Notes under the pieces: generated by a model | Databases searched by the model: none | What the model was told of the DNA's origin: nothing | What the model saw: the letters and a program-made list of their open reading frames with translations, nothing else | In this document: positions 8,533-61,240 of the stretch, in pieces | Layout of the letters: each line of letters starts with the position of its first letter | How positions within the stretch are numbered: position 1 is the first letter of the stretch | Translations under genes and position numbers: made by a program | Source of the DNA: Clostridium sp. CAG:302 | GTDB taxonomy: Bacteria; Bacillota_I; Bacilli_A; RF39; UBA660 | Length of the DNA stretch: 64,000 nt | Direction: 5' to 3' | Assembly (NCBI GenBank): GCA_000431795.1 | Contig: FR887359.1 | Location: 9,551-73,550, forward strand

Positions 8533-8593
8533 TCACTTCCAGCCTAAGGTCTTTCAGTGCTATTTTTAGTCTTTATTAAAAGTCTAAAAATAG
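8533..8593 (+). repeat. Tandem-hairpin intergenic repeat, copy 1 (partly degenerate first stem)
   Basis: The loop motif AGCCTAAGGTCT lies at 8541-8552. The second hairpin pairs CTATTTTTAG (8560-8569) with CTAAAAATAG (8584-8593). It starts 27 nt after the pgsA stop. Confidence 0.7.
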
Positions 8594-8677
8594 TATGCCA
8601 GTGCATCTATTATATATAAGCCACAAATAGATATTTATATGTTAATTGGTATTGTTTTTAAAAAAACACAAAAAACA

Positions 8678-8690
8678 CGAACAAATGTAC
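8678..8690 (+). promoter_or_regulatory. Candidate LexA (Cheo/SOS) box upstream of recA
   Basis: CGAACAAATGTAC compares with the Firmicute consensus CGAAC-N4-GTTCG, with one mismatch in the right arm. It sits just upstream of the -35 element. Confidence 0.5.
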
Positions 8691-8699
8691 TAAAATGTA

Positions 8700-8728
8700 T
8701 TGACAACCAAAAAAATATATTATATAAT
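8700..8728 (+). promoter_or_regulatory. recA promoter (TTGACA, 17 nt, TATAAT)
   Basis: A perfect -35 lies at 8700-8705 and a perfect -10 at 8723-8728, 40 nt upstream of the recA ATG. Confidence 0.7.
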
Positions 8729-8767
8729 TGTTTTGTAATTAAGGAAAGTGTAGGAAAGAGAGGAATT

Positions 8768-9808
8768 ATGGCAAAGACAGTTGAAAAGGATTCTGCATTA
8801 GAACAAGTATTAGCAGACATAGAAAAGCAATTTGGAAAAGGGGCAATTATGAAACTAGGAGAGCAGGAACATAAAGAAGTAGAAGTATGTCCTAGTGGTT
8901 CATTAAGTTTAGATATAGCCCTAGGAGTAGGAGGATATCCTAAGGGAAGAATAATTGAAATATATGGGCCTGAATCTTCAGGTAAGACAACATTCGCATT
9001 ACATGCAATTGCTGAAGTACAAAAGCAAGGAGGAAGAGCAGCATTTATAGATGCTGAGCATTCACTAGATCCAGTATATGCCCACAATTTAGGAGTAAAT
9101 ACTGATGAATTATTATTATCCCAGCCAGATACAGGAGAGCAAGCTTTAGAAATTTGTGATGCTCTAGTAAAGAGTGAAGCTGTTTCAATAATAGTAATAG
9201 ACTCAGTAGCGGCCCTTGTACCACAAGCAGAAATAGATGGAGAAATGGGTGATTCACATGTTGGATTACAAGCAAGATTAATGAGCCAAGCATTAAGAAA
9301 ATTATCCGGTTCAATTAACAAAACAAAAACAATTGTAATATTTATTAATCAGCTAAGAGAAAAAGTAGGAGTACTATTTGGTAATCCCGAAACCACACCA
9401 GGTGGTAAAGCATTAAAATACTATTCTTCAGTTAGACTTGATATAAGAAGAGGAGAACAATTAAAAGTAGGCTCTGATGTAGTAGGAAATAAAACTAATA
9501 TTAAAGTAGTAAAAAATAAAGTAGCTCCACCATTCAAAACAGCTACAGTTGATATAATGTATGGTGAAGGTGTATCAAAAGAAGGAGAATTATTAGATTT
9601 AGCCTCTGATGCTGGTATTGTTGAAAAAAGTGGTGCTTGGTATGCCTACAAAGGAGACAAAATTGGTCAAGGAAAAGAAAATGCTAAAATATATCTAAAA
9701 GAAAATTCAAAAATTGAAAACGAAATAGAAGAGTTAGTTAGAAAGCATTATAATATTTCTTTAAATAAAAAAGTAGAGAAAGAAGCTAAAACTAAAGAAT
9801 CAAAATAA
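8768..9808 (+). CDS. recA: Recombinase RecA
   Basis: It starts [31 protein letters not shown], with Walker [10 protein letters not shown] and [11 protein letters not shown]. The start is set at ATG 8768 (RBS GGAAAGAGAGG); the 8639 start in the ORF track runs through the promoter. Confidence 0.97.
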
Positions 9809-9811
9809 CTA

Positions 9812-9840
9812 AAGGAATAAAAATAATATTCCTTTTTTCT
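9812..9840 (+). terminator. Rho-independent terminator of recA
   Basis: The AAGGAATA/TATTCCTT stem is followed by TTTTT. Confidence 0.75.
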
Positions 9841-9865
9841 ATGTCATATGATAAAATGTAAGTAG

Positions 9866-10804
9866 GTGATAAAATTGAAAAAAAGCATAATAATATATAA
9901 TCCTAATTCAGGAAAATATAATAAAGAAAAAACATTACCAAAATTAAAAGAAGTATTAAATGATTATAATTATGAAGTAGAAATAATGGAAACAAAAAGG
10001 AAAGGTCATGCTACTATGCTAGTAAAAAAAATTCCTTATGTAGATTTACTTATTTCAATAGGTGGAGACGGAACATTCAATGAAGTTATGACTGGTAACT
10101 TTGCTAGAAAGAAAAGACTAACCCTATGCCATCTTCCATCAGGAACAACTAATGATATTGGAGCTATGTGGGGATATGGTAAAGACATAGTATCCAATTT
10201 AAAATTAGCTTTAAATGGTGAGATAAAAAGAATAGATGTATGTACAATAAATGGCAAACCATTAGTATATACTGCCGGTTTTGGTAAGTTTATGAATATC
10301 CCATATGAAACTCCAAGAGAATTAAAAAAGAGACTGGGACATTTAGCTTACATAAAAGAGGGTGCTAAAGATTTCTTTAGAAAAGTAAAACTATATGATA
10401 TAAGTTATGAGATAAATGGTGAAGAATATCGTGGACTATTCTCATTTGCCATTATAACAAATGCTAATAGAGTAGCGGGTATTAATAATTTTTATAAAGA
10501 TATTAAATTAAATGACAATCAGTTTGAAGTTTTAATGTGTAACATCACTAAATTAAAAGATGTAGTAAAGACATTGTATTTCTTTGCTAAATATGATGCC
10601 AGTAAAATACCGGGATTTTATTTTTATAAAACAGACAACTTCAAGTTCAAATTTAATACACCAATAAAAAAACCACTATGCATAGATGGCGAATCATTTG
10701 ATGATTTAAGTGGTGAATATGATGTTAAAATAGACAAAGATGTCTATGTCTTAATGCCATCAAAAAATATAAAAAGTTTATTTACAAATGAAGAGAAAAC
10801 CTAA
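9866..10804 (+). CDS. dagK: Diacylglycerol/lipid kinase (DagK/YegS family)
   Basis: It has IIYNPNSGK and ISIGGDGTFNEV. The start is GTG. Confidence 0.85.
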   Translation: MIKLKKSIIIYNPNSGKYNKEKTLPKLKEVLNDYNYEVEIMETKRKGHATMLVKKIPYVDLLISIGGDGTFNEVMTGNFARKKRLTLCHLPSGTTNDIGAMWGYGKDIVSNLKLALNGEIKRIDVCTINGKPLVYTAGFGKFMNIPYETPRELKKRLGHLAYIKEGAKDFFRKVKLYDISYEINGEEYRGLFSFAIITNANRVAGINNFYKDIKLNDNQFEVLMCNITKLKDVVKTLYFFAKYDASKIPGFYFYKTDNFKFKFNTPIKKPLCIDGESFDDLSGEYDVKIDKDVYVLMPSKNIKSLFTNEEKT

Positions 10805-10822
10805 AAATATAGTCTTCTCTTC
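10790..10822 (+). repeat. Single hairpin related to the repeat family, acting as the dagK terminator
   Basis: The stem is GAAGAGAA/TTCTCTTC and the loop AACCTAAAAATATAGTC, similar to AGCCTAAATAGTC in copy 4. The dagK stop lies inside the loop, and TTTTC follows. Confidence 0.5.
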
Positions 10823-10830
10823 TTTTCTAT

Positions 10831-11415
10831 TTACTTATAGCAGCCATTTCTAATCATTTGTCTTTTCCAGTTAATATTAGCCATAAAAACATATAGTCTC
10901 TTAGTCATTGGTCTAATTGTAGTCTCTAATATAATTTCATTACCATTATCTATACATTCTTTGAACTTCTTAATTTTAATCAAAAAAGGTATAGAAATCA
11001 ATTTATATAACCAAAACTTTTCACACTTACCAACAATCTCTCCAGCTCCAATATTAAAAGAGCCCATATATTTTGCTTTATTTTTCTTGGCAAAGTTTTC
11101 TATAATTAATGAAGCAGTTCTATTATGTTTAGCCTCCCAAAAACCACAGTTAATAATTGTATAAATTTTTTTATTACTAATATCAATCTTGTTACTTAGA
11201 ATATATTCCATAAATTCAATTATTTTGCATGTAGGTCCATCAACATATAAAGGAAAACATAAAATAATAGTATCCACCTTTTTAATGTCTTTTAAAATAT
11301 CGCTAAATCTATCCCTATATACACATTTAATCTTTTCCTTGTCTTTAATTTTATTCAGAAAATAATTAGAATTACCATTTTCTAATTTTGGACTACCATT
11401 TACATATAATTTCAT
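10831..11415 (-). CDS. Flavodoxin-like fold protein (NAD(P)H-dependent FMN reductase family)
   Basis: It has MKLYVNGSPKLENGNS at the N-terminus and VDTIILCFPLYVDGP. Confidence 0.55.
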   Translation of the reverse strand: MKLYVNGSPKLENGNSNYFLNKIKDKEKIKCVYRDRFSDILKDIKKVDTIILCFPLYVDGPTCKIIEFMEYILSNKIDISNKKIYTIINCGFWEAKHNRTASLIIENFAKKNKAKYMGSFNIGAGEIVGKCEKFWLYKLISIPFLIKIKKFKECIDNGNEIILETTIRPMTKRLYVFMANINWKRQMIRNGCYK

Positions 11416-11888
11416 ATATTTATCTCCTTATAATCATTATAAAAATAAATTTCTGGATAATTAGTATTCAAATTATTCATATTAGCCTCTACAAACCTAG
11501 TGGCAATTTTTTTATCTTCTTCAGTAATATTTTCACCATAAAAATAAACTTTAAAATTGATTTTTTTATCTATTCTAACTTTATGATGTATCTCACCATT
11601 TCTAATAGTAAAGAAAGGTTCAACAAATGATATGCTTCTTTCAATAATCTTTTTAACTTTACTACTATAAGTACCATAAGTAAATTTACTAATAATAATA
11701 AGTTCATCACTTTCTAAAATTTTTTTACCATTATAAGTAATATTATCCTTATGTACACATTCCAGTGGTTTTCTAACCCAGCAAGAAAAACATCCTATAC
11801 AGCTTTTTTCAGCATCACTAACTAAAACATCAGTATCATTTAACTTCAAAAAAGAGGTATCCTCTAAATCATGTATTATTGTTCTCAT
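11412..11888 (-). CDS. Flavodoxin-like / iron-sulfur flavoprotein-like protein with a Cys cluster
   Basis: It has CIGCFSCWVRKPLEC followed by ESDELIIISKFTYGTYSS. The ATGA overlap with the downstream gene indicates coupling. No clear RBS was found. Confidence 0.45.
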   Translation of the reverse strand: MRTIIHDLEDTSFLKLNDTDVLVSDAEKSCIGCFSCWVRKPLECVHKDNITYNGKKILESDELIIISKFTYGTYSSKVKKIIERSISFVEPFFTIRNGEIHHKVRIDKKINFKVYFYGENITEEDKKIATRFVEANMNNLNTNYPEIYFYNDYKEINI

Positions 11889-12020
11889 AATAAAAAATAT
11901 GCTAAATTAAAATATTTAGCACTATAATACTAGTAACTATTATAAAACCCACTTCAAAATTACTCCGAAATGAGTAAAATGAGTGGAAAATTGGAAGTAA
12001 AAATGGAAAAATCAAAGTAA

Positions 12021-12047
12021 AAAAGTCTTATTTTATAAGACTTTTGC
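12021..12047 (-). terminator. Terminator downstream of tmRNA (palindromic, potentially bidirectional)
   Basis: The AAAAGTCTTAT/ATAAGACTTTT hairpin is flanked by A and T runs. Confidence 0.7.
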
Positions 12048-12055
12048 ATTCTTAA

Positions 12056-12414
12056 TGGTGGAGCTGAGGGGAATCGAACCCCTGTCCGCAAATACAGTAG
12101 CTTAACCTTCTACAAGATTAGTAAGTTATTAAAATTCATAAGCAAGTAGATAACTTACAATCATAATTGCTTACTAGTTTATGTTTATTCGTTATGAAGT
12201 CTAAACAAAAATCATAATATAGTCTGCTTTATAAGTCCTATCTAATTCTCACAGACAAAGAATTAGTAGAACCTGTCGCTACCTATAGGTTAGGCATAAG
12301 CAACAGCGTTTGTATAGCTGTTTCCAGTTATATTTAATTTCACTCTTGTAACGTAAGAGATACTCGTCTTGCTAATTAAGCCCAAATATTTTCGTCGAAA
12401 CCAAAGACAGCCCC
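12056..12414 (-). ncRNA. ssrA: tmRNA (SsrA)
   Basis: The reverse complement begins GGGGCTGTCTTTGGTTTCGACG and ends GGACAGGGGTTCGATTCCCCTCAGCTCCACCA. The internal tag frame ends ...NSYTNAVAYA with TAA at 12290-12292. Confidence 0.95.
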
Positions 12415-12533
12415 AAATACATATATAATTTTACCAAACAAATGTTTCTTTGTCAATTTTTTATTCAAATTTTATTGTAATATTACAAATTTTAATGTAT
12501 AATTACTATAGAATAGAAATAGGGAGCGTTAGT

Positions 12534-13196: not shown

Positions 13197-13202
13197 TAAG
13201 TT

Positions 13203-14507: not shown

Positions 14508-14525
14508 TAGGAAAGGTGGTATATT

Positions 14526-15062: not shown

Positions 15063-15123
15063 GAAGTACAAACATATACAATAGATTATGATGCTAATGG
15101 CGGAACAGTAATAGCCTAATATT

Positions 15124-15152: not shown

Positions 15153-15186
15153 CTATTATTTGTTAATAATACTAATGGTGAAATAT

Positions 15187-19152: not shown

Positions 19153-19269
19153 ATGAAAAGCAAATCAAAAAAAGAAGATAAAAATCTAGTAATGCTATGT
19201 ATCTACATAGGACTTGCAGGTACACTTACCATTTTAGCAATATATTTCTTAACTAAATATGTATTTTAG
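19153..19269 (+). CDS. 38-aa small membrane protein (MKSKSKKEDKNLVMLCIYIGLAGTLTILAIYFLTKYVF)
   Basis: RBS AAGGAAGG lies 8 nt upstream. It has one TM helix and is followed at once by the AGAGAG-CACA-CTCTCT hairpin plus T-run. It is below the ORF-track length cutoff. Confidence 0.45.
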   Translation: MKSKSKKEDKNLVMLCIYIGLAGTLTILAIYFLTKYVF

Positions 19270-19349
19270 AGAGCACACTCTCTATTTTTTATTATTTTAA
19301 TATATAATATATTACTCTCTTATATATAATAGATATGGTTGATATATCA

Positions 19350-28307: not shown

Positions 28308-28363
28308 CCACTTAAGCCTGTAGTCTTAAGTGGAACAAGGAAGCCTAAATAGTCTTCCTTGTT
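28308..28363 (+). repeat. Tandem-hairpin intergenic repeat, copy 4
   Basis: CCACTTAAG-CCTGTAGT-CTTAAGTGG is followed by AACAAGGAAG-CCTAAATAGT-CTTCCTTGTT. Confidence 0.8.
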
Positions 28364-32289: not shown

Positions 32290-32343
32290 CCTCTTAAGCC
32301 TGTAGTCTTAAGAGGAACAGAGAAGCCTAAGGTCTTCTCTGTT
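32290..32343 (+). repeat. Tandem-hairpin intergenic repeat, copy 5
   Basis: CCTCTTAAG-CCTGTAGT-CTTAAGAGG is followed by AACAGAGAAG-CCTAAGGT-CTTCTCTGTT. Confidence 0.85.
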
Positions 32344-38418: not shown

Positions 38419-38447
38419 AAAAAAATGAAAAAAATGTCAAAAAATAG

Positions 38448-38771
38448 TTGACAAGTATAAAGGAATATTATATACTTATATCATCTAATAGATAAGCACA
38501 CAAACATATTAATTGTAGAAACATATAAAACGAAGTTTGTTTTATATATCTACCTAAATAGAAGTTTTATTTAGAATATTAATATGAGTGCAGATTAATG
38601 GGTGTTAAAGTAGAGACTTTAATTTCTTATCTTACTATTAGATATACATATATGTATGAGAGAAGTAACTCATTAGATAAGAGGTTGGTTGTATTAACTG
38701 ACATTAATATGATTTAACTATTCGTAAACTTGGGAATGTACTATTTGTCAGATAGTATGTTCTTTTCTTTT
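38448..38771 (+). ncRNA. Candidate structured RNA (leader or stand-alone sRNA) bounded by a promoter and an intrinsic terminator; family not recognised
   Basis: The promoter is TTGACA (38448), 17 nt, TATACT (38471-38476). Several hairpins are present, with a long-range pairing of 38484-38497 with 38628-38645. The terminator is an 11-bp stem (38734-38762) plus TTTTCTTTT. Confidence 0.4.
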
Positions 38772-38812
38772 ATCATAAATTATGCTATACTATTTGCGAA
38801 AGAAGTGATACC

Positions 38813-40983
38813 ATGAAAGAACTATTAAGTCCCGCGGGAAATATGGAATGCCTAAAAGCAGCAATTCATAATGGCGCAGATGCCATCTATCTAGGAGGTA
38901 AATCCTTTGGAGCACGTGCCTTCGCTGGTAATTTTACTAATGAAGAATTGAAAGAAGCCGTTAATTATGCTCACTTATATGGCGTAAAAATATATGTAGC
39001 GGCCAATACCATTATCTACAATAATGAAATAAAAGACTTCTTAGAATATATAAATATCTATATCAAATAGGTGTGGATGCTTTAATAATGCAAGATATAG
39101 GTATGATATCATTAGTAAGAAAAATATTTCTTGATATAGAAGTTCATGCTTCAACACAGTGTCATAATCACAATAGCGAAGGTATCAAATTATTAAAATC
39201 ACTTGGAGTAACAAGAGTAGTACTTGATAGAGAAATGTCATTAAAAGAAATAGAGAACATTAATATAGATATTGAAAAAGAAGTCTTTATACATGGAGCT
39301 CTATGTAATTCATATTCTGGTTGCTGTCTATTTAGTTTTATGAATGGTGGAAGAAGTGGTAACAGAGGAGAATGTACACAAGTTTGTAGACTACCATTTA
39401 AATTAATAAAAAATGGTAAATACATAGATACTCCAAATAAATATTTACTTAGTACCAAAGAATTAAATACCATTAATAATTTTGATAAATTACTAGACTC
39501 AGATATTGTAAGTTTCAAAATAGAAGGAAGAATGAAGTCACCAAGTTATGTTGGTTATGTAACAAGACTATATCGAAAACTAATAGATAATCATACTAAC
39601 AAAGTAACTAGCGAAGAAGAAAATAATCTAAAAATACTATTTAACAGGGACTTCACCAGTGGTTATTTATTTAATGATAAAGTAATGAACACAAGTACTT
39701 CCAATCATCAAGGATTAGAAATAGGAAGAGTACTCGAAGTAACCCCTAAAAAAATAAAAATTAAATTAACAAATAATCTATATCAAGAAGATGGCATCAG
39801 ATTCAAAAACAGTAACCTAGGTATGATAGCTAACTTCATATATAACGAAAAAGATTTACTCATAAATACTGCTAATAAAGGAGATATAATCTATCTAGAT
39901 AATAAAATAAATTTAAAAGAAAAAGATATACTTATTAAAACTTCCAGTGGGCATCTAGATGAAGAAATCCTATCTACTAGTGAAAAGAAAATAATTATAA
40001 CTATTGATGTATTGCAAATAAATGATTATTTAGAAATAACATTCAAAGATAATAATGGTAATAAAGTTAGTGATAGAGTAAAAACAGAAGTACCACAAAA
40101 AAGACCTACAACTAATGAAGAAATAAAAGAAAAACTAACTAAATTAGGAAATACTCCATTTATATGTAGTAAAATAAATATAAATATAAATAAAGATATC
40201 TTTGTTAATATGAAAGATTTAAATAACATAAGAAGATTACTTATAAATAACCTAACAGAAGCAAGAACCAGTATTAAGAGAGACCTTATCGTTAATGAAT
40301 ATCCATTAGATTATAATGAAGAAACAAACTACTATACTGAAATATCTGTTCTTGCCCGAAATAAAGACCAAGTAGAAGCCTCTCTTGCCATGAATGTTGA
40401 TAGAATATATCTGGATAGTGATTTATATGAAGAATATAAAGGTAACAGCAAAGTATATTTAAGACTAGAAAGAGTAAATAGTACCTATCCTTGTACCACC
40501 AGTAACATACTTGCCACTGAATTGGGAGCTATAAATAAGTATAAAAATAGTAATCTAATTAGTGACTACTACCTAAATGTAGTAAATAACTATAGTATCA
40601 AGTTCCTTCTTGATAATGGTGTTAAAAGAGTAACATTATCCCCAGAAATAAATTATAACTATCTAGATGATTACATCAAAGATAAAGTAGAAATTATTAT
40701 CTATGGTACCATTGAAAATATGCTTACCAAGTCCTGCCCAATCAAAGAACTAAAGATGTGTCCGTGTAAGAAAGAAGATATTTATTTTCTAGAGGACATA
40801 AATAAAAATAGATATAGAATTCTTCATAACAATTGTCTAACTCATATTATGCACTATAAAAAAATAAATTATATAGACAATATAGAATATTACAAAAATA
40901 TTGGTATTAGATCATTTAGACTAGAATTACTTGATGAAACTTATGATGAAGTAATTAAATTAATTAATGAAATAAAGAAATAA
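38813..40983 (+). pseudogene. U32-family (collagenase-like / RlhA-TrhP-type) protein, long fused form, interrupted by a -1 frame change after codon 85
   Basis: ORF 38813-39070 (ELLSPAGNMECLKAAIHNGADAIYLGG) and ORF 39073-40983 (VDALIMQDIG...EGRMKS...) are consecutive parts of one U32 protein. Adding one A to the AAA run at 39052-39054 gives a continuous ...DFLEYIKYLYQIGVDALIMQDIG. Confidence 0.75.
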
Positions 40984-41051: not shown

Positions 41052-41163
41052 AAAATATTGTTTTATATAGTAAACTACCAAAAAATATTCTTTAGGGAGT
41101 CTATAGCCTCCCTAAAGCCTCTTAAAACTATAGATTTAAAAGGAAAAAATAACACAATACCAG

Positions 41164-41198: not shown

Positions 41199-41400
41199 AT
41201 ATTCAATGCAATGATGAGGACACGATTATATATACTTTATTCATAGAGAGTTAGTGGCTGGTGTAAGCTAATAATAAAAATATATAATTACTACCTCAGA
41301 GTGGAATGCAAACATTTCCGGTTAACAACCGTTATCAAAATTAAGACCAAAGAAGGATGGTACCGAGATCGTATTCTCTCCTTCAGAAGGTCTTTTTTTC
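41199..41400 (+). promoter_or_regulatory. T-box riboswitch leader, threonine specifier
   Basis: It has the GA/K-turn motif CAATGATGAGGA, AGAGAG, distal-loop GGTGTAA, a specifier region ACTACC (Thr codons) at ~41290-41295 and the T-box sequence GGATGGTACCGAG. The terminator pairs AAGACC..GAAGGA with TCCTTC..GGTCTT and ends in T7 (41343-41399). Confidence 0.85.
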
Positions 41401-44072: not shown

Positions 44073-45164
44073 ATGAAAGAAAAAGCACTTGAAGTATTAA
44101 AAAAATTATCTGAAAACAACTATGAATCCTACCTAGTTGGAGGTTATCCTAGAGATCTAATATTAGGAAGAAAAACTAATGATATAGATATTTGTACAAG
44201 TGCAACTCCTAAAGAAATATTAGAAATATTTGATGATGTTATTGTATCAGATATGCAATATGGATCTGTAGTAATTGTATATAAAGGCTGTAAGTTTGAT
44301 ACCACTACATTTAGAAAAGAAATAAAGTATGAAAGTAATCGAAAGCCAGTAAAAATAAAATACATTAAAGATATCAAAAAAGACCTTTTACGAAGAGACT
44401 TTACTATCAATACTTTATGTATTGATAAAGATGGTAATCTACTAGATATATTAAATATAAGAAGTGATTTAGATAACAAATTACTTAAAACAGTAGGTAA
44501 TCCTAGATATCGTATTAAAGAAGATTCTCTTAGAATACTTAGATGTATAAGATTTGCTACTATCCTAGATTTTGATATAGAAAAGAAGACTAAATACTTC
44601 CTAACTAAATATAGTTATTTATTAAAATCATTATCTATAAATAGAAAGAAAGAAGAACTAGATAAAATATTCTTATCTAAGAATAAAGAAAGAGGAAGAA
44701 GACTACTATTAGAATTAAATCTTACTAATGCTTTAGATTTAGATAAACTAGCTACAATTACTATGTGTACTGATCTTACAGGTATTTGGTGTCAGCTAGA
44801 AGTAGATGATATCTATCCATTTACTAAAGTAGAGAAAGAGCAGATGTCTAAGTTAAGAGAACTATTAAAGTATGATAAAATAGATAACTATCTACTATAT
44901 AAATATGGTTTATATCTATGTACAGTCTATGCCGAAATAAAAGGTATACCAAGAAGAAAAATAAATACTATGTATTCTAAATTACCAATACTTACAAGAA
45001 GAGATATAAATGTAACTGGTGAAGAAATATCTATGATATTAAATAAACCTCCTGGTAAATATATTAAAGATATACTAGATGATATAGAAGTAAATATACT
45101 AAATAGTAGTATTGGTAATGATAAAGAAGAAATAACTAAATATATTAAAGATAAATACTTATAG
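44073..45164 (+). CDS. cca: CCA-adding tRNA nucleotidyltransferase
   Basis: It has YLVGGYPRDLILGRKTNDIDICT and RRDFTINTL. Confidence 0.9.
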   Translation: MKEKALEVLKKLSENNYESYLVGGYPRDLILGRKTNDIDICTSATPKEILEIFDDVIVSDMQYGSVVIVYKGCKFDTTTFRKEIKYESNRKPVKIKYIKDIKKDLLRRDFTINTLCIDKDGNLLDILNIRSDLDNKLLKTVGNPRYRIKEDSLRILRCIRFATILDFDIEKKTKYFLTKYSYLLKSLSINRKKEELDKIFLSKNKERGRRLLLELNLTNALDLDKLATITMCTDLTGIWCQLEVDDIYPFTKVEKEQMSKLRELLKYDKIDNYLLYKYGLYLCTVYAEIKGIPRRKINTMYSKLPILTRRDINVTGEEISMILNKPPGKYIKDILDDIEVNILNSSIGNDKEEITKYIKDKYL

Positions 45165-45189
45165 AAATATAGGTATTTTTTATATATAT

Positions 45190-45248
45190 CCCCTTAAGCC
45201 TGTAGTCTTTCGGGGCAAAAGAAAGCCTTAAGTAAAGTCTTTCTTTTG
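45190..45248 (+). repeat. Tandem-hairpin intergenic repeat, copy 8
   Basis: CCCCTTAAG-CCTGTAGT-CTTTCGGGG (partly degenerate) is followed by CAAAAGAAAG-CCTTAAGTAAAGT-CTTTCTTTTG. Confidence 0.8.
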
Positions 45249-46358: not shown

Positions 46359-46995
46359 GATAGAAAATATATTAAAAGAAAAACCAATTGTATTACCAAG
46401 ATATTTATTTAATTACTATCTTAGACTAGGTATTACTCCTGAAGAATTAATAATTTTAATATTTATTATGGATAAAGGTAATAAAGTAATATATAATCCA
46501 TTAGAATTAAGTGAAGAACTAGGAATGGATAAATTCAAAGTAATGGAACTTTTAAATAGTTTAAATGAAAAAAAGATTATATCTATAACTGTTGAAAAAG
46601 AAAATAATAAGAGTGAAGAATACATATCATTAGAATTACTTTATAAAAAGATAGCCAATATATTAATAGATAAAAAAGAAGATAAGACACTAGATAATAG
46701 TGATATATTCTCTATATTTGAAAAAGAGTTTGGTAGAACAATATCCTCAATGGAATGTCAAATAATTAAAGGTTGGATAGATGATGGTTTTTCTCATGAA
46801 CTAATAATGGAAGCTCTAAAAGAGGCTATATATAATGGTGTAACAAGTCTTAGATATATTGAAAAGATATTATATGAATGGCGTAAAAAAGGATATAAGA
46901 ATAAAAAAGATATACAAGAAGCTAAAGAAAAGTACCATGAAAGTAAAAAAGAAACTAAAGACTATTTCTTTTATGATTGGATAAATGATGATTAA
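46351..46995 (+). CDS. dnaD: DnaD-domain replication initiation / membrane attachment protein
   Basis: An N-terminal wHTH-like region precedes the C-terminal DnaD/DnaB_2 domain (FEKEFGRTISSMECQIIKGWIDD...RYIEKILYEWRKKG). It is followed by nth as in Bacillus. Confidence 0.7.
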   Translation: MNEIENILKEKPIVLPRYLFNYYLRLGITPEELIILIFIMDKGNKVIYNPLELSEELGMDKFKVMELLNSLNEKKIISITVEKENNKSEEYISLELLYKKIANILIDKKEDKTLDNSDIFSIFEKEFGRTISSMECQIIKGWIDDGFSHELIMEALKEAIYNGVTSLRYIEKILYEWRKKGYKNKKDIQEAKEKYHESKKETKDYFFYDWINDD

Positions 46996-47623
46996 TAAGA
47001 TATTAGATTATTTAGATGAATTATATCCTAATCCCAAGTGTGAACTAGAATATACTAAAGACTATGAATTATTAATAGCTATAGTAATGAGTGCTCAAAC
47101 TACTGATAAAAGAGTTAATATGGTAAATAAAGTTTTATTTAAGAAGTATCAGAGCATTAAAGAGTTATCAGAAGCAAGTCTTGAAGATATAGAAAAAATA
47201 ATTAAACCAATAGGTACTTATAAAAAGAAGGCTGTATTTATTAAAGAAATAGCTACTAAATTAATAAATGATAATATTAAAGTTATTCCAAATGATAGAG
47301 AATATTTAAGCTCTTTTCCTGGAGTGGGTAGAAAAACTATAAATGTCTTTTTATCAGTTATTTATAATGAACCCTTAGTAGCGGTGGATACTCATGTAAA
47401 TAGAGTAAGTAAAAGACTTAAACTAGCTAAAGATGGTGATGATGTTCTTGAGGTAGAAAAGAAACTTATGAAGAAAATACCTAAAGATAAATGGAATAAA
47501 GTTCATCATCAGTTAGTTTTCTTTGGTAGATATAAATGTAAGAGTATCAGTCCTTTATGTACTGATTGCAAATTAAAAGATATATGTAAATATTATTCCG
47601 TTCACTCTAAGCCAAGGTCTTAG
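46985..47623 (+). CDS. nth: Endonuclease III
   Basis: It has the HhH-GPD segment FPGVGRKTINVFL, VDTHVNRV, and the 4Fe-4S cluster CKSISPLCTDCKLKDIC. Confidence 0.92.
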   Translation: MMINKILDYLDELYPNPKCELEYTKDYELLIAIVMSAQTTDKRVNMVNKVLFKKYQSIKELSEASLEDIEKIIKPIGTYKKKAVFIKEIATKLINDNIKVIPNDREYLSSFPGVGRKTINVFLSVIYNEPLVAVDTHVNRVSKRLKLAKDGDDVLEVEKKLMKKIPKDKWNKVHHQLVFFGRYKCKSISPLCTDCKLKDICKYYSVHSKPRS

Positions 47624-54932: not shown

Positions 54933-55006
54933 TATTCCTTTTCTTTATAAATGCTTTATTTTATTAAAATAATGTGCTAAAATACTAAAAGAAAGAAGGA
55001 AGAAGT

Positions 55007-56272
55007 ATGAAAGTAGGAATATGTTCATTAGGATGTAAAGTTAATATATATGAAAGCGAATTAGTTACTAATATATTAAAAAATAATAATTATACAGTAG
55101 TGGATTTTGAGGATAAAGCAGATATATATATAATAAATACTTGTAGTGTAACTAATGAAAGTGATAAGAAAAGCAGAAAGATGATAAATAGGGCTAAGAA
55201 GAATAATCCTGCCGCTATTATTATAGTAATGGGTTGTTATAGCCAGGTTAATGCCGAGGATATAGATGTAGATATTGTCTTAGGTAATAAAGATAAATCT
55301 AAAATAGTAGAAATAATTGAAGAATATATAAAAACAAAGCAAAAGAAAAAAATAATATATGATTTAACTAAAGTAGACTTTGAAAAGATGGAAATAACTA
55401 ATTTTGATAGTCATACTAGAGCTTTTGTAAAAATACAAGATGGATGTAATGCTTTTTGCTCCTACTGTATAATACCCTATGTAAGAGGTAGAGTAAGAAG
55501 TAAAGATCCTGAAGATGTTATTAAAGAAGTAACAACACTAGTGGAAAAAGGTTATAAAGAAATAGTACTAACAGGTATTCATACGGGTAGGTATGGAACT
55601 GATATAAATACTACCCTTGAAGAACTATTAAATAAATTAGTAAATATACCAAATATATATCGTATAAGATTATCTTCAATAGAGATAAATGAAATAACTC
55701 CAGGTATAAAAGAATTATTAAAAGAAAATAAAGTGATGGCTAAACATTTACATATACCATTACAATCAGGATCTAATAAAATATTAAAACTTATGAATAG
55801 AAGATATAACAAAGAAGAATTTCTGTCTATGGTAGATAATTTAAGAGATATACCTGATATATCTTTAACTACTGATTTAATTGTAGGCTTTCCAAATGAA
55901 GGTGAAGAAGAATTTAATGAGACAATAGATACTCTAAAAAAAATAGGCTTTACTAAGATTCATACTTTTCCATATTCAAAAAGAAAGGGTACCCCAGCGG
56001 CCATTATGGATAATCAGGTATTCCCAGAAGAAAAGAAAAAGAGAGTACATAGAATATTAGACTTATCTAATAAGTATGAACATAATTTCTATGAAAGTAA
56101 GATAGGCAAAATCTATGATGGTGTAGTAGAGGTTCATTCTAATGGTACCACTATTGTTCACACCTCCAACTTTATACCAGTAATTATTAATGATATAGTA
56201 GAAGAGGGTACTATAGTAGATGTTAAAATAGAAAAAGTAGAAGATTTAAAAGTATATGGAAGAATAGTTTAA
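55007..56272 (+). CDS. mtaB: tRNA (N6-threonylcarbamoyladenosine) methylthiotransferase MtaB
   Basis: It has LGCKVNIYESE, the radical SAM motif CNAFCSYC and a C-terminal TRAM-like domain. Confidence 0.85.
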   Translation: MKVGICSLGCKVNIYESELVTNILKNNNYTVVDFEDKADIYIINTCSVTNESDKKSRKMINRAKKNNPAAIIIVMGCYSQVNAEDIDVDIVLGNKDKSKIVEIIEEYIKTKQKKKIIYDLTKVDFEKMEITNFDSHTRAFVKIQDGCNAFCSYCIIPYVRGRVRSKDPEDVIKEVTTLVEKGYKEIVLTGIHTGRYGTDINTTLEELLNKLVNIPNIYRIRLSSIEINEITPGIKELLKENKVMAKHLHIPLQSGSNKILKLMNRRYNKEEFLSMVDNLRDIPDISLTTDLIVGFPNEGEEEFNETIDTLKKIGFTKIHTFPYSKRKGTPAAIMDNQVFPEEKKKRVHRILDLSNKYEHNFYESKIGKIYDGVVEVHSNGTTIVHTSNFIPVIINDIVEEGTIVDVKIEKVEDLKVYGRIV

Positions 56273-56285
56273 AAGGAGAATAAAT

Positions 56286-56852
56286 ATGAGTGAAAACAAG
56301 TATGTATATCATGGAAGTCATATACCTGATTTAAAAGTAATCAAACCACATAAGAGTACACATCAGCAAAACTGGGTATATGCCACATCTTCAAAAGCAG
56401 TCGCTACCATTTTCTTAAGTAACAAACATAGTGATTTATATTATTACTTGGGTGGTAATGACGAAGATAACAATCTTGTTCTCGTAGAAAGAAAAAAAGG
56501 TATGTTTAAGGATATATTTAATGTATCTGGTTCTATTTATAAACTTAGTTCTAAAAACTTTCTTAATGGTATTACTGGCTGGTCTATGGAAGTTGTAAGT
56601 AATAGAGAAGAGCAAGTACTTGAAGAAGAAAAAATAACAGATGTTTATGAAGAACTAATAAAATTTAATGATGAGGGAAAAATTAAATTATATTTATATC
56701 CTAACAGACCTAGTTATATTCCTTTAGATAATAGTGATTTAATACCTAAAGTAATTAGATGGTCAAAAAAAGGATTAAAAATAGGAAACTTCTTTGAATT
56801 GTATCCAGAACTTACTGATAGGTTCTATGAAGAATTAGAAAAAACTAAATAG
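56286..56852 (+). CDS. 188-aa protein of unknown function, inserted between mtaB and its terminator
   Basis: RBS AAGGAG is present. The motifs YVYHGS, WVYATSS and MEVVS are only loosely reminiscent of H-Y-E ADP-ribosyltransferase folds. Confidence 0.4.
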   Translation: MSENKYVYHGSHIPDLKVIKPHKSTHQQNWVYATSSKAVATIFLSNKHSDLYYYLGGNDEDNNLVLVERKKGMFKDIFNVSGSIYKLSSKNFLNGITGWSMEVVSNREEQVLEEEKITDVYEELIKFNDEGKIKLYLYPNRPSYIPLDNSDLIPKVIRWSKKGLKIGNFFELYPELTDRFYEELEKTK

Positions 56853-56860
56853 TAATATAT

Positions 56861-56892
56861 GGAAGAATAGTTTAATATTCTTTCTTTTTTTT
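56861..56892 (+). terminator. Rho-independent terminator (AAGAATA/TATTCTT plus T-run)
   Basis: The 5' arm is a copy of the last codons of mtaB. Confidence 0.7.
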
Positions 56893-56943
56893 CTTAAGCC
56901 ATTTGTCTTAAGAAGCATAAGTAAGCCTAAGGTCTTCCTTATG
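56891..56943 (+). repeat. Tandem-hairpin intergenic repeat, copy 10
   Basis: TTCTTAAG-CCATTTGT-CTTAAGAA is followed by CATAAGTAAG-CCTAAGGT-CTTCCTTATG. Confidence 0.8.
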
Positions 56944-56974
56944 AAAACAATTTATGGGAAATTATGTTAAGTAA

Positions 56975-57003
56975 TTGACATCAAAAAAGAGTAATGCTAT
57001 AAT
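56975..57003 (+). promoter_or_regulatory. Promoter of the ABC exporter operon (TTGACA, 17 nt, TGCTATAAT)
   Basis: The -35 lies at 56975-56980 and the extended -10 ends at 57003. Confidence 0.7.
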
Positions 57004-57056
57004 TCATATAGTCAAGAAATTATGCATGGATACATAATATAAAAATGGAGGTTAAA

Positions 57057-58820
57057 ATGATAAAACTATTAAAGAAATTAACTAAAAAAGATTGGCTTTT
57101 TGTATTTATAAGTGTACTTTTAATAGTATTTCAAGTATGGTTAGAATTAAAAATGCCAGATTACATGTCTAATATTACTCAGTTAGTACAAACTAAAGGA
57201 GCAGATATGAAAGATATTTTAAAGGAAGGCTCTTATATGCTATTATGTGCTTTAGGTAGCCTACTTAGTGCGGGAATAGTAGGATATTTTATTTCAGGAA
57301 TAGCGGCTTCTTTCTCATTTAATGTAAGAGAGGCAATCTTTAAGAAAGTACTTAATTTAGATACTAGTGAAATAAAGAACTTTTCTACTAGTAGTCTAAT
57401 AACAAGAACTACTAATGATATAACTCAGGTAGAAATGCTAATTGGAATGGGTCTTCAATTAATGATAAAGGCTCCAATTACTGCTGCTTGGGCTATTACT
57501 AAAATATTAGGTAAGAGTCTAGAGTGGAGTATGGCTACAGCGGTAGCAGTCATTATTCTAATTACCACTATAATTATTCTAATGATTATAGTTATGCCAA
57601 GATTTAAGATAGTTCAAAATCTTATTGATAAGATAAATTCAGTAACTAGAGAAAATTTAACTGGTATTAGAGTAGTAAGAGCATTTAATGCTGAAAAATA
57701 TCAAGAAGATAAATTTAATAAAGTAAATAATGATTTAACTAATACACAAATGTTTAATCAAAAAGCATTTAATATTCTAAGTCCTATGATGAATATAGTG
57801 ATGCATACTCTAACATTATCTATCTATTTCATTGGAGCTCTTTTGATAGATAAGGCTTTAATGGGAGATAAAATAGTTTTATTTGGAGATATGATTGTCT
57901 TTTCATCATATGCTATGCAGGTAATAATGTCTTTCTTAATGCTTGCTATGATCTTTATGATGTTACCTCGTGCTAATGTGTCTGCAAAAAGAATAAATGA
58001 AGTACTAGATACAGAAGTAACAATTGAAGATGGTAAAGTAACTAAGAATAAGAATGGTTTAAGGGGGACTGTTGAATTTAAAAATGTATCATTTAAATAT
58101 CCTGATGCTGATGAATATATCTTAGAAAATATTAGTTTTACTGCTAATGAAGGAGATACTGTTGCTTTTATAGGATCTACTGGTTCTGGTAAGAGTACAT
58201 TAATAAATTTAATACCAAGATTCTATGATGCTACTGAGGGTGAAATACTAGTAAATGGTATTAATGTTAAAGATTATAAAGAAGAATATTTACATAATAT
58301 TGTTGGATATGTTCCTCAGAAGGCTGTTATGTTCTCTGGTACTGTAGAGTCAAATATTACTTATGGTAAGAGTATTTTAGGTAAACCTGATAAAAAGAAG
58401 ATTAATGAAGCGTTAAAAGTATCACAGGCTTATGAATTCGTTTCAAAACTAGAAAAGAAAGAAAAAAGTCATATAGCCCAAGGCGGTACTAATGTTTCAG
58501 GAGGTCAAAAACAAAGATTATCAATTGCTAGAACTATTGCCAGAAGTCCTGAAATATATATATTTGATGATTCGTTTAGTGCTTTAGACTATAAAACAGA
58601 TTCAGTACTAAGAAAAGAATTAAAAAAATATACTAAGAAGGCTACTAGTCTAATTGTAGCACAAAGAATAGGAACGATTATGAATGCTGATAAAATAATT
58701 GTTTTAGATAAGGGTAAATGTGTTGGAATAGGTACTCATAGTGAACTTATGAAAACTTGTGAAGTATATAAAGAAATTGCCCTTTCACAAGTAACAAAGG
58801 AGGAACTAGAAAATGCATAA
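57057..58820 (+). CDS. ABC exporter, fused permease/ATPase subunit (heterodimer partner 1)
   Basis: It has six TM helices, Walker A GSTGSGKST, signature VSGGQKQRLSIAR and Walker B IYIFDDSFSALD. The start is set at ATG 57057 behind GGAGG. Confidence 0.9.
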   Translation: MIKLLKKLTKKDWLFVFISVLLIVFQVWLELKMPDYMSNITQLVQTKGADMKDILKEGSYMLLCALGSLLSAGIVGYFISGIAASFSFNVREAIFKKVLNLDTSEIKNFSTSSLITRTTNDITQVEMLIGMGLQLMIKAPITAAWAITKILGKSLEWSMATAVAVIILITTIIILMIIVMPRFKIVQNLIDKINSVTRENLTGIRVVRAFNAEKYQEDKFNKVNNDLTNTQMFNQKAFNILSPMMNIVMHTLTLSIYFIGALLIDKALMGDKIVLFGDMIVFSSYAMQVIMSFLMLAMIFMMLPRANVSAKRINEVLDTEVTIEDGKVTKNKNGLRGTVEFKNVSFKYPDADEYILENISFTANEGDTVAFIGSTGSGKSTLINLIPRFYDATEGEILVNGINVKDYKEEYLHNIVGYVPQKAVMFSGTVESNITYGKSILGKPDKKKINEALKVSQAYEFVSKLEKKEKSHIAQGGTNVSGGQKQRLSIARTIARSPEIYIFDDSFSALDYKTDSVLRKELKKYTKKATSLIVAQRIGTIMNADKIIVLDKGKCVGIGTHSELMKTCEVYKEIALSQVTKEELENA

Positions 58821-61170
58821 CGGTAAAGAAGAAAAAAGAAATACTCCTCCAAGAGGGGGTCATGGTCCAATGAGGACCATTGAAAAGCCAAAGAATTTTG
58901 GCGAGGCTCTATCTAAATTATTTAAAAGTTTAAATGATTTTAAAGTACTACTAATAATATCTTTAGTACTAGCGGGTCTATCAGCAATCTTAGCTTTAGT
59001 ATCACCAGATAGATTATCTGATTTAACTGATGAGATATCTAAGGGTCTAACTATTAATACTACTAATATGGAAAAACTACAAGATGATTTGTTAACTAAT
59101 CTTAACGAAGAAACTTTTGCAGGTATATTAAATCTAAATATTGATGAGAGTACTATTTATAAAGTGAATACTGCTAGTATATCAGCTTTAGATAAAGAAA
59201 AGTTTAATAATACTATCAGTGCTATGACTAAAGAAAATGCTACTACTTCATTAGGTAAATTACCAGATAGTGTATTAGATATTATACTTGAAGATTCTAC
59301 ATATAATGATATATTAATAACTAAGGAAGATAAAATAAATCTACTTAAATCATTATCTAATTATAATAGTGAGACTAAAGATTATTCATTTATAACTAAA
59401 CTTCCAGATAGTATAAATAATGTCTTATTTCCTAGTTCTACTATTGATAATATTGAAATAACTACTAAAGATAAAGTAGAATTTATTAGTAAGATGTCTA
59501 CCTTAAAGAAAGATGCTTCAGTAAATGAAATATATAAAATAGTAGAAACATTACCTAATAGTATTCAAAAATTAGTTAATCCAAAGATGAATGTTGAAAA
59601 AATAACTAAGATGGCTACTATATTATTAATTATATATGTAATAAGTGCTACATTTAGTTATCTTGAGGGTATATTTATGGTTAAAGTAGCCAATAACTAT
59701 GCTAGGAGATTAAGAAATAAAATATCATTAAAGATAAATAAATTACCCCTTAAATTCTTTGATCACAACCTATCAGGAGATATTTTATCTAGAGTAACTA
59801 ATGATGTAGATACAATTGCTCAGTCATTAAATCAAAGTTTATCTACTTTAGTATCTTCAATTACATTATTTATTGGTTCTATTATTATGATGTTTGTAAC
59901 TAACTATATACTAGCTATAACCGCTATTGTATCTAGTTTAATAGGATTTATATTAATGTTTATAATTCTTAATAAATCACAAAAGTATTTTACTAAGAGA
60001 CAAGAAGAACTTGGTAATTTAAATGGTTACATAGAGGAAGTATATTCTGGATTAAATGTTGTTAAAACTTGTAATGGGACTGATGAGTCTACTAAAGAAT
60101 TTGATAAGTTAAATAAAAGACTTTATACTTGTAATAGAAAGAGTCAGTTTTTATCAGGATTAATGCAACCTATCATGGGCTTTGTTGGTAACTTTGGTTA
60201 TGTTGCTGTATGTGTAGTAGGTTCTCTTCTAGTATCAAAAGATATTATATCATTTGGCACAATAGTAGCCTTCATAATCTATGTAAGATTATTTACTAAT
60301 CCGTTATCACAAATAGCTCAGTCTATGACCTCACTTCAGACAACAGCGGCTGCCAGTGAAAGAGTATTTGCTTTTCTAGAGGAAAAAGAAATGTCTAAAG
60401 AGACAAATATTATTAAGAAATTAGATAAGGATAAAGTAAAAGGAAAAATAGAGTTTAAAAATGTTAAGTTTGGGTATGATGAAGATAAAATTATCATTAA
60501 AGACTTTACTGCTACTGCAAAACCAGGTCAAAAGATAGCTATTGTTGGTCCAACAGGAGCGGGTAAAACTACTATGGTAAACTTACTTATGAAGTTCTAT
60601 GAAATAAATTCTGGTGATATTAAGATTGATGGTGTATCTATTAAAGAGTTAACTAGAGAAAATGTTCATGATTTATTTACTATGGTACTTCAAGATACTT
60701 GGTTATTTAATGGTACTGTTAAAGAAAATATTGTTTATAATAGAAAGAATATTAGTGATAAGAAAGTAAAAGAAATATGCAAAGTAGTAGGAGTAGATCA
60801 TTTTATTAAAACACTACCTAATGGTTATGATAGTGAGATATCTGATACTGATTCTATTTCAGCAGGACAAAGACAGTTACTTACTATTGCTCGTGGTATG
60901 ATTGAGAATGCTCCTTTCTTAATCCTAGATGAAGCTACATCTAATGTAGATACTAGAACTGAAGAATTAGTACAAAAGGCTATGGATAAGTTAATGGAGA
61001 ATAAGACTTCATTTATTATAGCTCATAGATTATCTACTATTAGAAATGCTGATTTGATATTGGTTATGAAAGATGGTAATATTATTGAGACTGGTAATCA
61101 TGATAAGCTTATGAAAGAGAATGGTTTCTATGCTAGTTTGTATAATTCTCAGTTTGAAAGCTTAAAATAA
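58813..61170 (+). CDS. ABC exporter, fused permease/ATPase subunit (heterodimer partner 2) with a large insertion between TM1 and TM2
   Basis: It has Walker A GPTGAGKTT, signature ISAGQRQLLTIAR and Walker B FLILDEATSNVD. The protein is 785 aa, with about 200 aa between TM1 (~aa 44-64) and TM2 (~aa 268-290). Confidence 0.9.
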   Translation: MHNGKEEKRNTPPRGGHGPMRTIEKPKNFGEALSKLFKSLNDFKVLLIISLVLAGLSAILALVSPDRLSDLTDEISKGLTINTTNMEKLQDDLLTNLNEETFAGILNLNIDESTIYKVNTASISALDKEKFNNTISAMTKENATTSLGKLPDSVLDIILEDSTYNDILITKEDKINLLKSLSNYNSETKDYSFITKLPDSINNVLFPSSTIDNIEITTKDKVEFISKMSTLKKDASVNEIYKIVETLPNSIQKLVNPKMNVEKITKMATILLIIYVISATFSYLEGIFMVKVANNYARRLRNKISLKINKLPLKFFDHNLSGDILSRVTNDVDTIAQSLNQSLSTLVSSITLFIGSIIMMFVTNYILAITAIVSSLIGFILMFIILNKSQKYFTKRQEELGNLNGYIEEVYSGLNVVKTCNGTDESTKEFDKLNKRLYTCNRKSQFLSGLMQPIMGFVGNFGYVAVCVVGSLLVSKDIISFGTIVAFIIYVRLFTNPLSQIAQSMTSLQTTAAASERVFAFLEEKEMSKETNIIKKLDKDKVKGKIEFKNVKFGYDEDKIIIKDFTATAKPGQKIAIVGPTGAGKTTMVNLLMKFYEINSGDIKIDGVSIKELTRENVHDLFTMVLQDTWLFNGTVKENIVYNRKNISDKKVKEICKVVGVDHFIKTLPNGYDSEISDTDSISAGQRQLLTIARGMIENAPFLILDEATSNVDTRTEELVQKAMDKLMENKTSFIIAHRLSTIRNADLILVMKDGNIIETGNHDKLMKENGFYASLYNSQFESLK

Positions 61171-61182
61171 TTATTTGTTTAT

Positions 61183-61240
61183 CCTCTTAAGTCTAGGCCT
61201 TAAGAGGCAAAAGAGAGCCTTAAAATAAGTCTCTCTTTTG
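61183..61240 (+). repeat. Tandem-hairpin intergenic repeat, copy 11
   Basis: CCTCTTAAG-TCTAGGC-CTTAAGAGG is followed by CAAAAGAGAG-CCTTAAAATAAGT-CTCTCTTTTG. Confidence 0.85.

Follow-up and report, generated by a model that had tools for sequence, protein, structure and literature searches.

Introduction

Repetitive extragenic palindromic (REP) sequences are, to our knowledge, well documented in Proteobacteria but hardly so in the low-GC Bacilli or in the 'Tenericutes'-like gut lineages that are represented only by metagenomes. The bacterial interspersed mosaic elements (BIMEs) of Escherichia coli bind gyrase and integration host factor (IHF). At the ends of insertion sequences of the IS200/IS605 family, as worked out with IS608, two subterminal hairpins lie on the same strand and an unpaired base makes their recognition strand-specific; these elements have neither terminal inverted repeats nor target-site duplications, and their orientation bias is consistent with an active strand on the lagging-strand template. 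Here we analyze a family of intergenic repeats in a 64,000-nt stretch of contig FR887359.1 (hereafter the window, by which the whole stretch is meant). Each unit, or module, measures ~55 nt and consists of two abutting hairpins, H1 (~26 nt) and H2 (28-34 nt), in the same orientation and with essentially no spacer. On sequence evidence, the modules are a real and previously undescribed family of extragenic palindromic repeats in a clade of uncultured gut Bacilli.

The window has a G+C content of 27%, and almost all of its genes lie on the + strand. Its only Rfam matches at the gathering threshold are RNase P class B, tmRNA and three tRNAs. An AlaRS protein identical to that of the window is encoded on human-gut metagenome contigs, and a 20-mer of H1 (see below) likewise occurs in human-gut metagenomes and metagenome-assembled genomes (MAGs); judged by these two matches, the host is an uncultured low-GC gut Bacilli lineage with the standard genetic code. 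Further stretches of DNA compared with the window carry the labels L001-L060. The more distant relatives among them were picked through WhiA homologues, whose identity to the WhiA of the window is 95% in L057, 89% in L055 and 82-85% in L052-L054 and L056; at the whiA site, L052-L056 serve as outgroups and L057 as a closer relative.

Results

Size and distribution of the module family

A covariance model was built from an alignment of 30 distinct modules, drawn from the window and from related MAG loci, and was run over the entire window with filters off. The model identified 11 two-hairpin modules, nine on the + strand and two on the - strand (Table 1), all of them within the non-coding gaps that make up ~9% of the window. 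A preliminary description of the window had reported a dispersed family with at least 11 copies, and ten of these were recovered, at 8534, 19347 (- strand), 28308, 32290, 38365, 40998, 45190, 47603, 56890 and 61183, with scores of 49-76 bits save for the 8534 copy (34 bits). The single hairpin that had been listed at 10790 (10790-10822) was missed by the model; a T-run comes after it where two convergent genes meet, so that it resembles an ordinary terminator. A structural scan likewise revealed abutting hairpin pairs with GCC...GTC tips at all of the listed places but 10790. A copy on the - strand at 41090-41143 had been overlooked and is the eleventh.

A further 58 modules were found with the model in ~380 kb from related human-gut 'Tenericutes/Bacilli' MAGs. 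Over the 443 kb made up of the window and related DNA, the wider search returned 69 matches scoring at least 41 bits, representing 54 distinct sequences, and the density of modules in the gut Bacilli clade is ~1 per 6 kb. The H1 20-mer CTTAAGCCTGTAGTCTTAAG was found in nine species-level MAGs from the human gut, classed as 'uncultured Tenericutes' or 'Bacilli bacterium', and also in more than 111 human-gut metagenome stretches. Within the window, the motifs AAGCCTGTAGTCTT and AGCCTAAGGTCT occur four and five times, respectively, on the + strand only, and neither count was reached in any of 100 shuffles.

No named family was recovered for the modules, in agreement with what had been supposed before. 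Rfam has no family that matches them at the gathering threshold, and an E-value scan over one module yielded only noise (E of 0.007 or more); the motif strings appear in no paper on the element, the sole text match being an irrelevant primer, and the literature on RF39 and repeats turned up only general REP papers. The plasmid and phage collections searched held no match to the module, and pattern scans of viral contigs gave chance matches apart from one contig that bears a true module. This contig (L060, IMGVR_UViG_3300045988_179395), which is classed as viral, carries the module at 11485-11537, behind a terminator and near a 2648-aa open reading frame (ORF), and could belong to a prophage, or else be a piece of chromosome from a related species that has been misclassified.

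Anatomy and stem covariation

The constant part of each hairpin is its tip, which runs from an A-T pair through a G-C pair and a C•T mismatch to a C-G pair. Past the C-G pair, the apex may consist of just a tri- or tetraloop (TGTA, TAAG, GAAA and others) or may extend for another 3-4 bp of stem with a loop of its own. The conserved loop of the preliminary description has therefore to be replaced by a conserved tip; the spacer of 1-2 nt that it placed between the hairpins does not exist, H1 abutting H2, and the CCTNAGG palindrome that it saw in the loop is present but incidental, being found in only five of ~22 hairpins. The stems (8-10 bp) are A/T-rich and free in sequence. H1 most often reads CCYCTTAAGCCTGTAGTCTTAAGRGG, and the H2 stem, of 9-10 bp, is different from site to site.

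Among 73 non-redundant hairpins, the tip mismatch is C•T in 69 and T•C in four. Wherever a stem of at least 6 bp in the window is capped by GxC..GyC, the two variable positions carry C/T or T/C and never a Watson-Crick combination, and the tip is flipped between related copies, reading GTC..GCC in L022 and GCC..GTC in L060. Because the tip takes only these two states, flips between related copies and is never restored to a Watson-Crick pair, the mismatch is a maintained feature.

The proposal that the stems vary between copies and yet stay complementary under structural constraint is borne out by covariation across the 54 distinct sequences: both sides change in 18 of the 21 pairs, and 97.2% of cells are paired, values that none of 500 shuffles reached and from which slid structures were likewise far off. 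Compensated stem changes are also found at orthologous sites of species 86-93% identical. Pairs of the G•T type occupy 6 of 1133 cells in module stems (0.5%), compared with 8 of 1133 for A•C, whereas in the hairpin and T-run terminators that follow ORFs in the same DNA, scored with the same handling of G•T, they reach ~14.5%, a control of only 32 hairpins and a noisy one. Both strands of the modules fold equally well. Since G•T is almost absent from the stems, their strict Watson-Crick upkeep favours a DNA-level constraint over a relaxed RNA constraint.

In L054, one of the more distant relatives, the unit at 4690-4771, between AAA-ATPase and RNase J genes, consists of three abutting hairpins, each with a GCC..GTC tip, and a T-run comes after them, so the number of hairpins per unit is not fixed at two.

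Several other readings of the anatomy were tried and rejected. The module flanks do not close a three-way junction, and the UGU in the H1 apex does not make the module a mimic of an anticodon loop or of a substrate of tRNA-guanine transglycosylase (TGT), the apex being variable and not a 7-nt loop. The idea of a restriction site was set aside, as neither CTTAAG (23 observed, 12.7 expected) nor CCTNAGG is avoided outside the modules; roughly half or more of the occurrences in the window fall inside modules. Uptake-sequence and CRISPR-like readings were dropped on anatomy.

Placement, flanks and orientation

The modules usually occupy a slot of one kind, in the order stop codon, optional terminator, module and next promoter. 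Most window copies begin shortly after a + strand stop codon, as had been described, at measured distances of 12-44 nt. About half of the modules lie immediately behind a recognisable terminator consisting of a hairpin and a T-run; in the window, this is the case for the copies at 32290 (after alaS) and 56890, where a separate terminator had been noted before, and additionally for those at 45190 and 8534. The module-free intergenic gaps of the window have ordinary terminators. Promoter-like -35/-10 pairs occur downstream of several modules, at variable distance.

The preliminary description was also right that the modules are not simply terminators. In 36 non-redundant copies the 3' flank begins with AA (A at +1 in 31 copies and at +2 in 27) and continues as mixed A/T, T enrichment appearing only from +6, and no T-run directly follows the hairpins on the reverse strand either. 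A simple terminator scan flags three of the modules. Their identity as terminators was rejected given flanks without a U-tract and the presence of real terminators both ahead of modules and in module-free gaps. The 5' flank is T-rich, and the signature of T-rich 5' and AA 3' flanks tracks the orientation of the module, not that of the gene, which points either to a preferred target or to a few bases of the flanks being part of the element.

Orientation was assessed at 47 non-redundant sites. The module is co-oriented with the gene ending just upstream in 33 of 44 scorable cases (~75%); nine modules have genes of one and the same strand on either side and run antisense to both, and two or three are located in divergent gaps. 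Antisense copies score like sense copies and persist between species (L008/L031 and L022/L029); the inverted module of L022 still lies between terminator and promoter, and that of L008 fills a short gap within an operon. At 25 sites versus 12, the module strand shows positive GC skew, a bias that is not separable from gene orientation, with few clear lagging-strand genes adjoining modules.

Subfamilies, gain, loss and probable conversion

At least two subfamilies can be distinguished. Subfamily A has an H1 with CCYCTTAAG, and subfamily B, with three copies in the window and one in L001, has H1 CACTCTAAG, H2 TYATTTATAGCC and ~30 nt of common 3' sequence, ATATCAGCCATATCTATTATATATAAGAG. The recurrence of this extension beyond the hairpins at four unrelated sites argues for the dispersal of a DNA unit.

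Module positions are stable within the species of the window and among species 86-93% identical. At the 45190 site, the H2 of L023 has been replaced entirely: it lies four compensated pairs and an apex indel away from that of the window, is still fully complementary, and also occurs at another locus in another MAG. This swap looks like copy-to-copy conversion. Among the more distant relatives, the 21 kb of L057 contain five full-scoring copies and a decayed one after alaS (21.5 bits), with none after whiA. No module is present in the 15.5 kb of L055, and three, one of them the triple hairpin, are found in 80 kb of L052-L054 and L056, making three in 99 kb for L052-L056 together. Most of the sites occupied in the window have no module in sister lineages: in L052-L056, none follows whiA, alaS, the CCA enzyme gene or nth. 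At the whiA site, these outgroups have the right-hand flank, AAAAAARTRAAAAAAATGTC-N-TTGACA, and no module.

Modules of the window and their surroundings

Table 1. Modules identified in the window with the covariance model, together with the terminator and promoter-like sequence that adjoin the 32290 copy.
Feature	Start	End	Strand	Score (bits)	Description
Module, subfamily B, degenerate	8534	8593	+	34.4	H1 TCACTTCCAGCCTAAGGTCTTTCAGTG; H2 tip GTC..GTC; aligns with other B copies; ~30 nt B-type 3' extension to ~8623; hairpin and T-run terminator immediately upstream, from 8507
Module, subfamily B, inverted	19347	19399	-	53.9	Aligns with other B copies; 3' extension ~19317-19346; in gap between - strand tRNA genes and + strand gene, 64 nt beyond terminator of small + strand ORF
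Module, subfamily A	28308	28366	+	73.3	CCACTTAAGCCTGTAGTCTTAAGTGG + AACAAGGAAGCCTAAATAGTCTTCCTTGTT; divergent gap, 97 nt from start of - strand gene, no co-oriented gene upstream; kept in three sister species; one compensated A-T to C-G change, in H1
Intrinsic terminator of alaS	32253	32289	+		Hairpin and T8, one T•G wobble pair; abuts 32290 module; read from the sequence
Module, subfamily A	32290	32343	+	76	Highest score in window; fold z-score -4.6 (+ strand) and -4.8 (- strand); L017 ortholog has same stems, other apex bases; L057 ortholog decayed; compensated H2 change AA/TT to AG/CT
Promoter-like TTGCAT-17-TATAAT					27 nt downstream of 32290 module
Module, subfamily A	38365	38418	+	74.5	15 nt past whiA stop codon, no terminator between; no copy at this site in L052-L057, which have the right-hand flank in common; compensated A-T to G-C change in H2 in L027
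Module	40998	41051	+	68.7	H1 CCTATGAAGCCTAAGGTCTTCATAGG; H2 tip GCT..ATC; 14 nt past U32 peptidase stop codon; kept in L023, L027, L032 and L057; related single-hairpin form at same site in L053 and L056
Module, degenerate, inverted	41090	41143	-	50.9	Head-to-head pair with 40998 copy, 38 nt apart; orthologs in L023, L032 and L057 have canonical GCC..GTC tip on - strand
Module, subfamily A, long-apex H2	45190	45248	+	65.7	Behind terminator 45153-45189; identical in L057
Module, subfamily B	47603	47660	+	49.5	Aligns with other B copies; 3' extension to ~47690; overlaps last 21 nt of ORF 46985-47623, stop codon inside H1; site in L052 and L054 has other C-terminus and plain terminator
Module, subfamily A	56890	56943	+	65.7	Immediately behind terminator 56861-56889; L015 ortholog differs by stem changes, partly compensated
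Module, subfamily A	61183	61240	+	62	H1 tip flipped (GTC..GCC, T•C mismatch); long-apex H2; begins 12 nt past a stop codon

At the tip of the degenerate 41090 module (41100-41107), the window carries three substitutions within 10 nt relative to the orthologs, and the tip is polymorphic within the species (L042); the locally high substitution rate suggests conversion from another copy.

Adjoining the inverted 19347 module is an unannotated + strand ORF of 38 codons (19153-19283, MKSKSKKEDKNLVMLCIYIGLAGTLTILAIYFLTKYVF), with a terminator of its own, whose product, rich in lysine at the N-terminus and with a single hydrophobic helix, resembles a small membrane peptide or a type I toxin.

Ahead of the 56890 module, a 188-aa ORF (56286-56852) has no Pfam match, and L015 lacks it at the orthologous position. 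A 20-nt direct repeat, TATATGGAAGAATAGTTTAA, flanks the ORF in two perfect copies (56253-56272 and 56856-56875), and the segment 56253-56875 gives the impression of a gene inserted between a stop codon and the terminator belonging to it.

Other features of the window

Between the 38365 module and the U32 peptidase gene lies a + strand leader of ~390 nt (38420-38812), segments of which, such as AATGGGTGTTAAAGTAGAG, are conserved in distant relatives. Part of it (38618-38711) weakly matches the Rfam PGK motif, scoring 35.6 bits where the gathering score is 50.8, and the leader may be an uncharacterised cis-regulatory RNA. Within the U32 peptidase gene, the window is one base short at 39052 compared with all five same-species contigs, which splits the gene (713 aa elsewhere) into ORFs 38813-39070 and 39073-40983; the missing base is either a frameshift or an assembly error. 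Further downstream, a T-box leader on the + strand (41202-41385) scores 81.6 bits, under the Rfam gathering score of 93, and was therefore missed by the default scan. This leader, which is equipped with a terminator of its own, precedes an 82-aa ORF and thrS and is ~80% conserved in L006 and L010.

Discussion

The explanation that best accommodates these observations, and one that in our judgement stands evenly balanced between right and wrong, is that the modules are extragenic palindromic DNA repeats akin to REPs and form a family confined to one lineage. Under such an explanation, the modules would have spread by a DNA-level insertion process, with the mismatched tip recognised on the extruded or single-stranded hairpin by a structure-specific DNA enzyme, comparable to the REP-associated tyrosine transposase (RAYT) on REPs or TnpA on IS200/IS605 ends. 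Insertion would be preferred just 3' of a T-run, and coding-strand T-runs would come from terminators, so that this preference alone would produce the 75% sense bias. A transcribed copy would be merely a passive 3' stem-loop, serving as exonuclease barrier or read-through brake as in REPs. The scarcity of G•T pairs, the existence of antisense and divergent-gap copies and the position of other copies behind terminators favour an element acting as DNA over the cis-acting RNA that is implicit in the follow-up by Infernal, R-scape and Term-seq suggested in the preliminary description.

A number of points weigh against this explanation. No HUH/Y1 transposase was detected by motif regular expression or by tblastn with an IS608 TnpA query in ~1.3 Mb of clade DNA, which includes 111 metagenome stretches with the H1 20-mer and amounts to a few percent of the genomes concerned. 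The foot of the module hairpins bears neither a GTAG nor a CGTC tag, and terminal inverted repeats and a target-site duplication are likewise lacking. Comparison of the occupied whiA site with the empty outgroup sites, where the insertion boundaries are approximate, shows no duplication flanking the module. No presence/absence polymorphism was seen within the species of the window or among species 86-93% identical, and no two sampled sites of one genome have the same H2, so there is no sign of recent transposition. The long-term upkeep of structure at every site could instead reflect a host function. REP stems reportedly often contain G•T pairs (PMC3733652), and the G•T deficit of the modules therefore does not count as a REP feature.

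Subfamilies of REPs usually have alternative complementary residues in their stems (PMC3733652), so compensatory stem variants are, taken alone, not unusual. A Pfam search of ten unannotated ORFs neighbouring modules returned nothing relevant.

The modules might alternatively act as a cis-acting RNA element at mRNA 3' ends, a possibility that we place on the unlikely side. The coaxially stacked hairpins would present C•U tips about two helical turns apart, and a dimeric RNA-binding protein, or else an enzyme similar to RNase III, would bind or cut the pair, with proposed roles in setting mRNA 3' ends, stabilising the upstream message, factor-dependent termination or insulation between transcription units. 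Co-orientation with the upstream gene at 33 of the 44 non-redundant sites fits such an element, as does the location of many copies 3-20 nt past a stop codon where no other terminator is present, among them those behind whiA, behind the U32 peptidase gene and behind the gene that ends at 61170. The strand asymmetry of the tip is conserved, with C•T rather than G•A, compensated changes keep the structure at orthologous sites, and the abutment of H1 and H2 provides a continuous helix of ~20 bp. However, a strong canonical terminator precedes about half of the copies, which hence would be poorly transcribed, ~20% are antisense to both neighbours and yet equal the sense copies in score and persist between species (for instance, the L008/L031 and L022/L029 pairs), and the copies at 28308 and 19347 lack an upstream co-oriented gene. 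Moreover, G•U is almost absent, unlike in the RNA-level hairpins of the same genomes, both strands fold equally well and no Rfam family matches.

A third proposal, which we regard as unlikely, takes the tip as the mark of a lineage-specific hairpin-reading system, operated either by an enzyme of a new kind that mobilises single-stranded DNA and is distinct from the classical Y1 HUH transposases, or by a protein that reads tandem C•U RNA hairpins to define or insulate transcript ends. If this were true, the modules would be functional punctuation, and not passive repeats, in reduced-genome gut bacteria.

It is decidedly doubtful that the modules are a host site acting at the DNA level, to which a nucleoid protein, gyrase or a replication-restart factor would attach by binding or through a cruciform, and which would be kept at transcription-unit boundaries for chromosome organisation or supercoiling. 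Their location solely between transcription units in either orientation, their strictly Watson-Crick palindromes and their stable positions across species 86-93% identical would agree with such a site, and the GC skew (25 sites versus 12) would put the C•T-tip hairpin mostly on the lagging-strand template, although this replication-strand bias is inseparable from gene-orientation bias in these data. On the other hand, the modules are tied to no known binding consensus, sister lineages have no modules at most of the same sites, and a site bound as double-stranded DNA would not need stems that vary and yet remain complementary.

That the modules are ordinary intrinsic terminators, or chance palindromes of A/T-rich intergenic DNA, is highly improbable, for although the hairpins sit after genes and a simple scan flags three of them, no U-tract follows, modules are positioned behind real terminators, the tip mismatch is invariant, motif counts lie far above those of shuffles and the H1 20-mer recurs across many genomes.

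The module family offers a starting point in the search for the enzyme or binding protein by which such hairpins are recognised, and a natural data set on how short palindromes stay complementary. The module is also a sensitive sequence marker of the clade in gut metagenomes. For annotators, it carries the caution that covariation alone is no ground for scoring hairpins of this kind as terminators or structured RNAs.

Comparison with known systems

In Staphylococcus petrasii and S. pragensis (L003 5386-5409, L011, L019 and L030), a ~130-nt imperfect palindromic repeat present in several copies has the H1 20-mer CTTAAGCCTGTAGTCTTAAG at its apex. The staphylococcal element is one long hairpin, whereas the modules are a tandem pair, and it shows weak, sub-threshold similarity to the S. 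aureus small RNA family tsr24 (RF02577), whose consensus apex differs. The identity with the H1 20-mer may be a coincidence, because ~1 chance 20-mer match is expected, by our own estimate, from the size of the collection.

Intrinsic terminators, including their tandem-hairpin forms, share with the modules stable hairpins soon after stop codons and a mostly gene-co-oriented placement; unlike them, the modules have no U-tract, G/C-poor stems with G-C only at the tip, an invariant mismatch and almost no G•U. Integron attC sites, whose hairpins carry R''/R' core sites (RYYYAAC / GTTRRRY) at the foot and flank mobile cassettes, were considered and rejected, since only some H2 stems have the form AAC...GTT and the neighbours are housekeeping genes (such as alaS, whiA, thrS and the CCA enzyme gene). 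Miniature inverted-repeat transposable elements such as RUP, Correia/NEMIS, ERIC and bcr1 have terminal inverted repeats and target-site duplications, whereas the modules have neither, and the stems of their H1 and H2 are unrelated.

A closer likeness is found in the ends of IS200/IS605 elements and in their miniature derivatives, the palindrome-associated transposable elements (PATEs), which, like the modules, place two hairpins of the same orientation on one strand; in the modules both bear the C•T tip. Further common traits are an unpaired or mismatched base, the lack of terminal inverted repeats and target-site duplications, and an orientation bias compatible with an active strand on the lagging-strand template. 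The differences are that IS200/IS605 elements insert 3' of a fixed target of 4-5 nt, whereas the modules show 5' T-richness without a fixed word, that their hairpins lie 10-19 nt inside the element, whereas those of the modules seem to extend right to its boundaries, and that the two stems of a module differ from each other. IS200/IS605 elements also have a cognate TnpA, and none was detected in the sampled clade DNA.

Of all known elements, the modules are most like the REPs of E. coli. The REPs and BIMEs of Enterobacteria and Pseudomonas, which are associated with RAYT, nevertheless differ from the modules in several respects. A GTAG or CGTC tag at the stem foot is the defining mark of REPs, whereas the 36 non-redundant module copies are T/A-rich at -4 to -1 and +1 to +4 and have no fixed tetranucleotide there; GTAG occurs in modules inside the H1 apex only. 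In BIMEs and REPINs, REPs form inverted pairs, whereas a module is a direct tandem of two different hairpins; inverted pairs of units were seen once in the window (40998/41090) and once in L001. The stem sequence defines a REP family, whereas the modules have a conserved tip and free stems, A/T-rich unlike those of REPs, in a host from an uncultured low-GC gut Bacilli ('Tenericutes') lineage. Genomes with REPs carry a gene for RAYT, a Y1 HUH transposase, typically flanked by REPs, for which the ~1.3 Mb of clade DNA sampled yielded no candidate. In other respects the correspondence is extensive: like the modules, REPs and BIMEs are short imperfect palindromes, present in high copy number and extragenic, located at gene 3' ends or in gaps within operons and found in either orientation, with a conserved hairpin asymmetry in the form of a mismatch or bulge, and they make up lineage-specific families with subfamilies that have alternative complementary stems.

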